Position numbers and translations under genes: made by a program
Notes under the pieces: model-generated
Databases searched by the model: none
Told to the model about the DNA's origin: nothing
Seen by the model: the letters and a program-made list of their open reading frames with translations, nothing else
Sequence record: OW849071.1
DNA length: 64,000 nt
Source of the DNA: a plasmid
Direction: 5' to 3' (one strand)
Part shown: one piece after another, positions 7,293-8,872 of the stretch
Layout of the letters: every line of letters starts with the position of its first letter
How positions within the stretch are numbered: position 1 is the first letter of the stretch

Positions 7293-8872
7293 ATGGTTAG
7301 TCGTAAGCTGGAACGTTTGATTAGCCCTGGAAAGTGGATACATAATCTATCAGTCCTCTCTTTATCGATTCTTTCAGCTGGTATATTTTTTTTGTATTAT
7401 CTGAGAGCGTATCTTACCTGATTTTTCGGGATAAAATTAAAGACTATACTTCCGATGTGCTTGTTCGCTCTGAATCGCTCCTGGTTCAGACTGAATCTGT
7501 CAAGACTGCTGCAAAGTCACATTTGAATATAGGAGACAGTCCATGTACTAATGAAAATATCCTACATCTTCGGGTTGTAGTATGGCCCTATCCGTTGATT
7601 AAAGATGTTGGCTACATCATAAAAGGAGAATTAGCCTGTAGTGCTCTGTGGGGGAGTTTACGTCCCACCTTAAGTCTGGAACATTTTGATAAAAAATGGA
7701 CTTCGCGGGAAGGAGTGTGGCTTTTTGGTATTAAGCTTATGGATGATATATCCGTCAATGGATATATTTCTGAAGGTATTATGGTGACCCTATCACCATT
7801 TGTCTTCAGACGATTCGAAACTGATATGTATTCAAAAAACTTTAGCGCTGTTGTCGGAAATAGTAAGCATGACAGGCATTACTTCAATATAGGACCTGAT
7901 GCTCCTCTTCTTGATCGGCATGATAGCGTTCCACTAAGGTTTAGAGTGTTTAGGGCATGTAGCCTACATTATGATCTCTGTGTTGCAGGAGGTGGGTATT
8001 TTACGGGGATATTTTCAGAGCACTGGAGCATACAAATGTTATTAGTAACAGTGTCACTACTTTCCGGTTTAATGATTTATATTATCATTATGAACAGAGC
8101 AGAACTCAATAGTTCACTATCTGCAAGGTTTGTAAAGGCTTTGAAAAATGAAGCCCTGTCGCTGGTCTATCAACCTATTTACAGAATTGAAGACGGACAG
8201 ATCTGCGGATTTGAGGCCTTGCTCAGATGGAAAGATGAAAGACTCGGGAATATTAGCCCTGAAGTATTTATACCGCTTTCTGAAAGGGAAGGGTTGCAGG
8301 AGGATGTGACTTTATTCGTCATTAACCATGCTATCCGAGAATTTATCCATACTGCTATTCAGAATGAAATATTTTTGAGCGTAAACATTAATCCAAGCGA
8401 TCTTGATTCAGAAAAATTCAGGGATAAACTACTAGGATTAATTTCTGAATATAACATCCCATATAAAACAATCCTTCTTGAAATTACGGAGCGTCAAGGA
8501 GGGGATTTTGAAGGTATGAAAATTCACATTGATAAATATAAAAATCATGGTGTCAGGTTTGCCATCGATGACTTTGGGACAGGATATTCTAATCTTAATC
8601 TGGTAACTGCGCTTGATGTAGATGAAATAAAAATAGACAAATCGCTAACTAGTGCTATTGGTACTGAATCTTTACGATATGATCTTCTTCCCGGACTGCA
8701 TGAGATGTTCCGCTCCATTGCAGATAAGATTGTGTTTGAGGGTGTAGAGACTCAGGAGCAGGTGAACTATCTGAAGACGTTCTGGCCACAGAGTTATGCT
8801 CAGGGCTGGTATTACTCCAGAGCGCTTCCGCTGGAAGAAGCGAGAAAACTTACCATCCGGGAATTGAACTGA
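7293..8872 (+). pseudogene. CSS-motif/EAL c-di-GMP phosphodiesterase (PdeC-like), reading frame broken at a T8 tract
   Basis: An ATG at 7293 encodes a signal-anchor TM helix (MVSRKLERLISPGKWIHNLSVLSLSILSAGIFF) and hits a stop at 7419. The main ORF 7457-8872 (GTG start) encodes the periplasmic CSS-type domain, TM2 (MLLVTVSLLSGLMIYIIIM) and the EAL domain (EALLRW, DDFGTGYS, EGVETQEQ). The two frames join if T8 (7386-7393) becomes T9. Confidence 0.6.

Follow-up and report, generated by a model that had tools for sequence, protein, structure and literature searches.

Poly-G frameshifts in rmpA2 are known from Klebsiella plasmids, where homopolymer slippage gives rise to pseudogenes or unstable alleles. 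Unstable RmpA2 is the topic of a published study (PMC8473682). The described proteins closest to the one analysed here are the CSS-domain c-di-GMP phosphodiesterases (PDEs) of Escherichia coli (PdeC/YjcC, PdeB/YlaB and their paralogues; Herbst et al. 2018, PMC5897775), and the automatic annotations of our gene are YjcC-like or YlaB-like. In the case of E. coli PdeC, a fragment comprising TM2 and the EAL domain, produced by DegP/DegQ processing, is highly active (PMC5897775). The EAL genes of plasmid pKPN3 were catalogued by Cruz et al. 2012 with no mention of a frameshift (PMC3431978), and our literature searches found no description of the frameshift or of the T-run polymorphism reported below. 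We analysed a plasmid-borne stretch of 64,000 nucleotides (sequence record OW849071.1), hereafter called the window, in which a gene of this kind is split at a run of eight T. Positions are those of the window, and all features lie on its + strand.

A phosphodiesterase gene split at a run of eight T

The upstream part of the gene is a 42-codon ORF, which ORF translation places from the ATG at 7293 to a TGA at 7419-7421. This residual 5' ORF (7293..7421 with its stop) encodes the cytoplasmic N-terminus and TM1, and ends with nine out-of-frame residues past the tract. As read from the sequence, a Shine-Dalgarno-like element, GAGGGGAG (7279..7286), which includes GGGGAG at 7281-7286, ends six nucleotides 5' of the ATG, and no motif comparable to it is present upstream of the GTG at 7457. 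A sigma-70 consensus scan of positions 7100-7292 revealed no promoter, with match counts equal to the shuffled expectation. Intact 526-aa alleles begin with exactly the same residues 1-33 as the ORF, to which the N-termini of full-length homologues (82-38% identity) are homologous; searched against Pfam, the 42-aa product matched no family.

The frame breaks on the T8 homopolymer itself (7386..7393, in the context GGTATA-T8-GTATTAT), which is a -1 frameshift site. The remainder of the gene (7394..8872) lies in the -1 frame and encodes residues 35-526 of the intact protein followed by the stop codon; its protein sequence is identical to that of a T9 allele, P0126. In this frame, no canonical start codon precedes the GTG at 7457, from which a 471-codon ORF runs to 8872; the frame is already open across the tract, where it reads ...YIFFVLSESVSYLIFRDKIKDYTSDVLVRSE. 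These 471 codons contain no further lesions. By our own estimate this carries little weight against a pseudogene reading, since decay is not to be expected yet in a lineage so young, with a few substitutions at most across 14 kb. The window contains 12 other A/T runs of at least eight bases, so that a T8 run is in itself unremarkable; that the frame breaks exactly on this one is not chance.

Addition of a single T to the run produced one ORF of 526 aa with CSS-motif (PF12792) and EAL (PF00563) domains. The reading frame is intact with T9, in which the run reads TTT TTT TTT and encodes Phe32-34 at the end of TM1, and is broken with T8 and T7. The earlier note had located the ATG 7293 ORF, its stop at 7419, the T8 run at 7386-7393 and the continuation at 7457, all of which proved exact by ORF translation. 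It had also predicted that one more T would fuse TM1, CSS domain, TM2 and EAL domain into a single protein; this protein was obtained as the 526-aa ORF and occurs naturally, the exact repaired product of the window being present in public collections as P0126.

The periplasmic CSS-motif sensor domain (7430..8029, residues ~47-246) was recognised by PF12792 with 53-55 bits for a cut-off of 23. Its conserved cysteines, C85 (TGT 7544-7546) and C116 (TGT 7637-7639), are invariant in the homologue alignment, and the motif in the domain reads CSA, not CSS. TM2 (8036..8104, residues ~249-271, MLLVTVSLLSGLMIYIIIM), a hydrophobic segment read from the translation, stands at the TM2 position of the CSS-PDE architecture (PMC5897775). 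The cytoplasmic EAL domain (8129..8821, residues 280-510; PF00563, about 180-181 bits) contains all of the motifs EALLR, N365, E397, DDFGTGYS, K447 and EGVE, again invariant in the homologue alignment, and the PDB matches of the protein were EAL domains only. In T9 alleles, TM1 and TM2 flank the CSS domain on one polypeptide, whereas in the window TM1 sits on the separate 42-aa ORF owing to the T8 frameshift. Orthology to a named E. coli CSS-PDE was not supported, as the best NCBIfam match, PRK10551, scored ~159 bits where the cut-off is 461, and was confined to residues 244-519. From its predicted architecture, the ancestral gene is a normal phosphodiesterase of the E. coli PdeC type, with TM1, CSS domain, TM2 and EAL domain in this order.

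Intact alleles and homologues

We next considered alleles in which the frame is open. The K. pneumoniae plasmid KP77 and a K. michiganensis plasmid both carry T9 and a single intact 526-aa ORF, and their junction is that of the predicted repair. The eleven T9 plasmids of other haplotypes that were sampled represent K. pneumoniae, K. quasipneumoniae, K. variicola, K. grimontii, K. michiganensis, Raoultella and E. coli; nine or ten of them contain an intact 526-aa ORF and one has an IS5 insertion. The 526-aa ORF is also present in BA2275, which combines T9 with the haplotype of the window. The hosts of plasmids with an intact gene include several Klebsiella species as well as Raoultella and E. 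coli, and some of these plasmids are of animal or environmental origin; dN/dS among the intact haplotypes is 0.28-0.50.

A search of ~5.8 billion proteins retrieved full-length homologues at 83-38% identity, among others from Enterobacter, Klebsiella, Citrobacter and Rahnella. At its N-terminus, each of those aligned has a stretch homologous to the product of the 7293 ORF, TM1 included. The possibility, raised in the earlier note, that homologues start at the position of 7457 was therefore not borne out, since every full-length homologue has the N-terminal transmembrane segment. In four homologues (83, 75, 70 and 65% identity), the Phe-rich end of TM1 is retained but encoded by interrupted tracts of at most six consecutive T, the codons being TTC TTT TTT; CTC TTT TTT; TTT TTC TTT TTC; and TTT TTC TTC. 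Because the tracts of these four homologues are interrupted, the uninterrupted T9 run appears to be peculiar to this plasmid-gene lineage, as an accidental fragile site and not an evolved feature. Comparison of the alleles shows T9 to be the ancestral, intact state.

Tract length across related plasmids

The 1.75-kb region containing the gene matched 1145 PLSDB plasmids (1128 at 99% identity or more; 1127 from Klebsiella), most of which are conjugative IncFIB/IncFII plasmids; matching E. coli genomes numbered only two, one of them complete. Many of the matching records place the region at the same coordinate as the window, which therefore corresponds to the start of a pKPN3-like IncFIB(K) backbone. 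In order to count tract lengths, probes of 70-72 nucleotides centred on the run were compared with PLSDB, a single indel lowering identity below 99%. On the haplotype of the window, T8 was found in 920 records by exact match to the 71-nucleotide probe, T7 in 84 (7.8%) and T9 in two (2/1006). A further 50 records have T9 together with one nearby substitution and represent other haplotypes, and about 15 carry other variants, including T8 on another haplotype. The comparison of tract length across related plasmids, proposed in the earlier note as a check, thus gave T8, T7 and T9 in 920, 84 and 2 records on this haplotype. T8 being present in 920 of 1072 records, the note's own objection, that all related sequences might carry T9, does not apply.

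Homopolymers are error-prone, and the T8 of the window might itself be a sequencing or assembly error for a true T9. The rate of miscalling was calibrated on two other T8 runs of the same backbone, one intergenic (9808-9815) and one inside silS (16296-16303). These control runs were called T7 in 15 of 1112 and in 14 of ~1321 PLSDB records, respectively, and the miscalls at both came from the same few assemblies, indicating a background error of ~1% of records. Since 7.8% of calls at the focal run are T7, for a control error of ~1%, the T8 call is real and so are most of the T7 calls. Some T7 records (CP092760, CP092754, MZ69048x) are nevertheless miscalls, their control runs being shortened as well. 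In a collection of 15 billion proteins, the T8 products of 42, 471 and 278 aa were each found on at least 1000 contigs, short-read assemblies included. With these contigs and 920 independent records matching the T8 probe exactly, the probability that the window is in error is practically nil, and we rejected this explanation. In the same collection, the exact T9 protein of the window haplotype occurred on 37 contigs; its BA2275 variant occurred on 10.

Inheritance of the tract

The T7 plasmids sampled came from four distant sources: a kangaroo (China), a horse (China), a strain with a DDBJ accession (Japanese) and a human patient (Kazakhstan). All four have in common, relative to the window, two SNPs (1996A, 4012G) and one rearrangement junction, located after 14097. 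As T7 plasmids of such distant origin carry the same SNPs and the same junction, T7 looks like one clade, at least for the four plasmids sampled, produced by a single event followed by clonal spread. Pure sequencing noise as the source of the T7 calls is ruled out by these shared backbone markers together with the control-run calibration. Another candidate marker of the clade, 8058C, was discarded as private to pA1825-KPC.

T8 also occurs outside the haplotype of the window. The gene of pVA684-146 (strain VA684, T8) has no substitution relative to that of pEGKP7.1 (strain EGKP7, T9), but differs from that of the window by 12. Because VA684 matches a T9 plasmid and not the window, this pattern indicates that the change from T9 to T8 arose independently on a second haplotype; T8 arose at least twice. 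The 39-aa truncated product of the VA684 allele was found on 176 contigs of the 15-billion-protein collection.

The rare T9 calls on the epidemic haplotype bear on whether the tract ever lengthens. One of the two PLSDB records, BR21, evidently comes from an assembly rich in errors, as its gene contains three additional 1-bp deletions. The other, BA2275, is clean over the stretch that was fetched, which does not include the control run at 9808-9815. Ten epidemic-haplotype T9 contigs were fetched and compared by a BLAST-based SNP table; eight of them also gained one base in the control homopolymers at 9808-9815 or 6943-6951 or in A/C runs. These eight are systematic homopolymer over-calls, that is, artefacts, and we mostly rejected such contigs as evidence of reversion. 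Three apparently clean T9 alleles remained, those of the fetched contigs L023 and L025 and that of BA2275, each standing on a different sub-background of the epidemic haplotype. Either isolated errors or rare but genuine reversions could account for them. If real, the three alleles would be independent revertants and the tract would be movable in both directions.

An alternative to a simple loss of the gene is genuine phase variation, with the run acting as a contingency tract that toggles the phosphodiesterase between OFF (T8, T7) and ON (T9); this would create heterogeneity in c-di-GMP and biofilm within plasmid-bearing populations. Changes in length do switch the frame exactly, three tract lengths exist in nature, the change from T9 to T8 recurred on a second haplotype, and the three clean-looking T9 alleles stand on different sub-backgrounds. 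However, the alleles follow phylogeny, and near-identical plasmids do not show a mixture of them. ON alleles amount to less than 1% of the epidemic haplotype; only 2 of its 1006 PLSDB records have T9, one of them in an assembly with other 1-bp deletions, and 8 of the 10 sampled T9 contigs are over-calls. The commonest derived change, from T8 to T7, leaves the gene OFF. Of the features that mark contingency loci, the switch of frame with length was found, whereas variation in both directions among close isolates beyond sequencing error was not, nor is the repeat maintained in homologues. In an enterobacterium proficient in mismatch repair, eight T is near the lower limit of the run lengths that give rates at the level of phase variation, and this also counts against a switch. 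We consider phase variation unlikely, reversion of T8 being possible at a low rate. The evidence points to a tract length that, in the plasmids compared, follows plasmid ancestry and is not scrambled among close relatives.

Possible expression of the frameshifted allele

We also considered whether protein could be made from the T8 allele. In the transcriptome of the related plasmid pBIC1a, a YjcC-like gene located after IS903B and before a BetU transporter gene shows low expression (PMC6286996). We take this gene, by its matching position, to be the same as that of the window. Since the locus is transcribed in pBIC1a, RNA would be available for slippage or for initiation at an internal start.

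The allele could be leaky, through slippage of RNA polymerase on U8/dA8 adding one U or through a -1 ribosomal shift on U UUU UUG. The T9-encoded protein would then be a minority product, and T8 a hypomorph rather than a null allele. The frame arithmetic fits, as one extra U or a -1 shift gives ...IFFFVLSES..., and the U8 run at the frame junction indeed holds U UUU UUG in the zero frame. Transcription of the locus in pBIC1a (PMC6286996) is in keeping with this proposal, and transcriptional slippage restores the frame at runs of 9A/9T, and in some cases of 8 (PMC1088944). In many bacterial genomes, however, selection against slippage-prone runs is evident at nine nucleotides (PMC1088944), so that slippage at eight is expected to be weaker. 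No stimulatory RNA structure was found downstream of the run (fold z = 0.13) and no SD-like element 5' of it. The frameshifted configuration is moreover derived and not conserved, homologues and ancestors being in frame, and T7 plasmids would require a +2 or a -1 slippage. Leaky rescue is thus improbable, and programmed -1 frameshifting in particular was rejected on the missing structure (z = 0.13) and on the single frame of ancestors and homologues.

A second route would begin at the ATG at 8036, a putative internal start preceded by GGAG (8025-8028) at seven nucleotides (8025..8038). Initiation at this codon would give a 278-aa protein made of TM2 and the EAL domain, and would turn a redox-regulated PDE into an unregulated one. 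PGAP uses this ATG for the 278-aa WP_004178087.1 (TM2 and EAL domain) and calls the CDS in most plasmids. In RefSeq, a CSS-motif pseudogene at 7456-7968 and a separate 278-aa 'EAL domain-containing protein' at 8035-8871 are annotated (record coordinates, which are window positions minus one). PGAP's marking of the CSS part as a pseudogene counts in favour of the pseudogene reading. In favour of a sensor-less enzyme, the SD-like GGAG and the ATG are present, the EAL catalytic motifs are intact, and the TM2 and EAL fragment of PdeC is highly active, with TM2 driving dimerisation (PMC5897775). However, PGAP calls the same 278-aa CDS in T9 plasmids with an intact full-length ORF, which makes the call an annotation habit and not evidence for a start; the ATG and GGAG are the internal Met249 and preceding codons of the full-length protein; and insertions in the gene are tolerated. 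IS903B, ISKpn26 and ISVsa5 were found inside the gene in several T8 plasmids, and IS5 in one T9 plasmid; such independent insertions are a further sign that the gene is dispensable. Production of a sensor-less enzyme is accordingly improbable. Both routes might also act together: T8 would rewire the gene to give a trickle of full-length sensor-PDE by U-run slippage and constitutive TM2 and EAL protein from 8036, mimicking activated PdeC, and the recurrent change from T9 to T8 would be selected in clinical Klebsiella through a c-di-GMP-dependent change in fimbriae or biofilm. We regard this scheme as very improbable.

Discussion

The T8 allele is likely a frameshifted and non-functional allele of a CSS-domain c-di-GMP phosphodiesterase, pseudogenised by replication slippage. 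In the proposed course of events, all three codons for the Phe residues that close TM1 would have become TTT in this gene lineage, creating an uninterrupted T9 run, from which replication slippage would have deleted one T. Translation from the proper start at ATG 7293, with its strong SD, would then stop after 42 codons, and the sensor and catalytic parts would lack both TM1 and a ribosome-binding site. The T8 allele would have been fixed in the IncFIB(K) pKPN3-like backbone that is epidemic in clinical Klebsiella pneumoniae, spreading most simply by hitch-hiking on a successful resistance plasmid. One sub-lineage would have contracted further from T8 to T7, and the loss from T9 to T8 would have been repeated independently on the second haplotype. 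We infer replication slippage as the mechanism, as we do the loss of function and the neutrality or advantage of that loss; 'non-functional' is to be taken in this sense, as some full-length or truncated protein might be made by transcriptional slippage or from the start at 8036. The best reading of the run is that of a mutational hot spot which gives heritable knock-outs, with rare or no reversion, and not of an evolved reversible switch. Between the two readings left side by side in the earlier note, recent pseudogenisation is thus retained, with a lineage-inherited tract and an ancestral T9, and the phase-variable switch is set aside, as T9 alleles on the epidemic haplotype are rare and mostly artefactual.

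About 1,000 sequenced Klebsiella resistance plasmids have this gene only as a frameshifted copy, whereas related plasmids keep it intact. In counts of c-di-GMP enzymes and in links drawn between plasmids and biofilm, the epidemic allele should be treated as OFF or at best as altered. The difference is hidden in RefSeq, where broken and intact alleles alike appear as a 278-aa 'EAL domain-containing protein'. Conversely, apparent ON alleles in bulk assemblies can be artefacts of homopolymer calling, which neighbouring control runs expose. Evidence of selection for the loss, if obtained, would suggest that carrying this phosphodiesterase on a plasmid is costly in clinical hosts. A frameshift by homopolymer slippage in a plasmid gene is an ordinary phenomenon, and the practical value of the present case is modest; its most useful by-products are the census of alleles, the recurrent independent inactivation and the control-run test for false ON alleles.

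Compared with known systems, the locus resembles genes whose frame is restored by transcriptional slippage on A/T runs (Baranov et al. 2005, PMC1088944) in that its ORF is broken at a long A/T run, where one extra nucleotide in the mRNA run would restore the frame. Another frame restoration by transcriptional slippage at an A/T run is that of Citrobacter rodentium tssM (PMC4256274). Unlike in such genes, the run here has 8 nucleotides and not 9-11, and the configuration is recent and derived, not conserved. Compared with the E. coli CSS-PDEs, the product of the window gene is a putative PDE whose gene is plasmid-borne, is not an equivalog, and is split by the frameshift with TM1 separated from the rest. 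As in the contingency loci of Neisseria, Haemophilus and Campylobacter, the length of a coding mononucleotide run sets the reading frame; unlike in those loci, the tract tracks ancestry, the epidemic lineage is almost never ON and homologues do not conserve the run. The likeness to rmpA2 would be that a plasmid gene is cut short by the change of a single base within a coding mononucleotide run, and that the resulting allele is inherited and clinically widespread; the difference is that here the run is of T and lies in the gene of a signalling enzyme.

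Annotation and assembly of the phosphodiesterase gene

In the RefSeq/PGAP annotation, the sole CDS called for the phosphodiesterase gene is an 'EAL domain-containing protein' of 278 aa (266 aa in some records) that starts at the internal Met249 (8036-8872 in the window; comparison loci L010, L011 and L013-L017). The same short PGAP call is also given to T9 plasmids that carry the intact 526-aa open reading frame, while the full-length gene is called in Prokka-style records. Since RefSeq/PGAP gives the short call to both broken and intact alleles, the ON/OFF difference between them is masked by the annotation.

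A group of public assemblies showed the simultaneous gain of one base in several A, T and C homopolymers. These were the T9 contigs L024 and L026-L032, which derive from Logan/ENA runs (ERR14294xxx, SRR21973098, SRR30408935 and others). 'Intact' alleles that hinge on homopolymer length are not trustworthy when they come from these assemblies.

Two sites besides the focal tract are polymorphic. Position 7412, the first base of a codon located 19 nt past the T run, is T, A or G among haplotypes, encoding Ser, Thr or Ala respectively, and provides a handy haplotype marker beside the tract. Upstream of the gene, an intergenic T9 run (6943-6951) is also polymorphic: in many related plasmids it is broken by a G at 6944 and reads TGTTTTTTT, and in error-prone assemblies it is extended to T10.

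Other c-di-GMP genes and gene candidates in the window

In the region 3604-5886, a GAF-GGDEF sensor diguanylate cyclase is found a short distance upstream of the phosphodiesterase gene (about 3613-4560). It is accompanied by a minus-strand EAL fragment of 103 aa (4587-4898) abutting IS903B (4918-5886), and this fragment is a second broken c-di-GMP gene within the same 5 kb.

A C8/G8 homopolymer (56956-56963) lies inside a minus-strand open reading frame of 249 aa (56333..57082), whose N-terminal part resembles a GGDEF-domain tail joined to a membrane segment. The reading frame may be a further homopolymer-bearing c-di-GMP gene that has been truncated or frameshifted.
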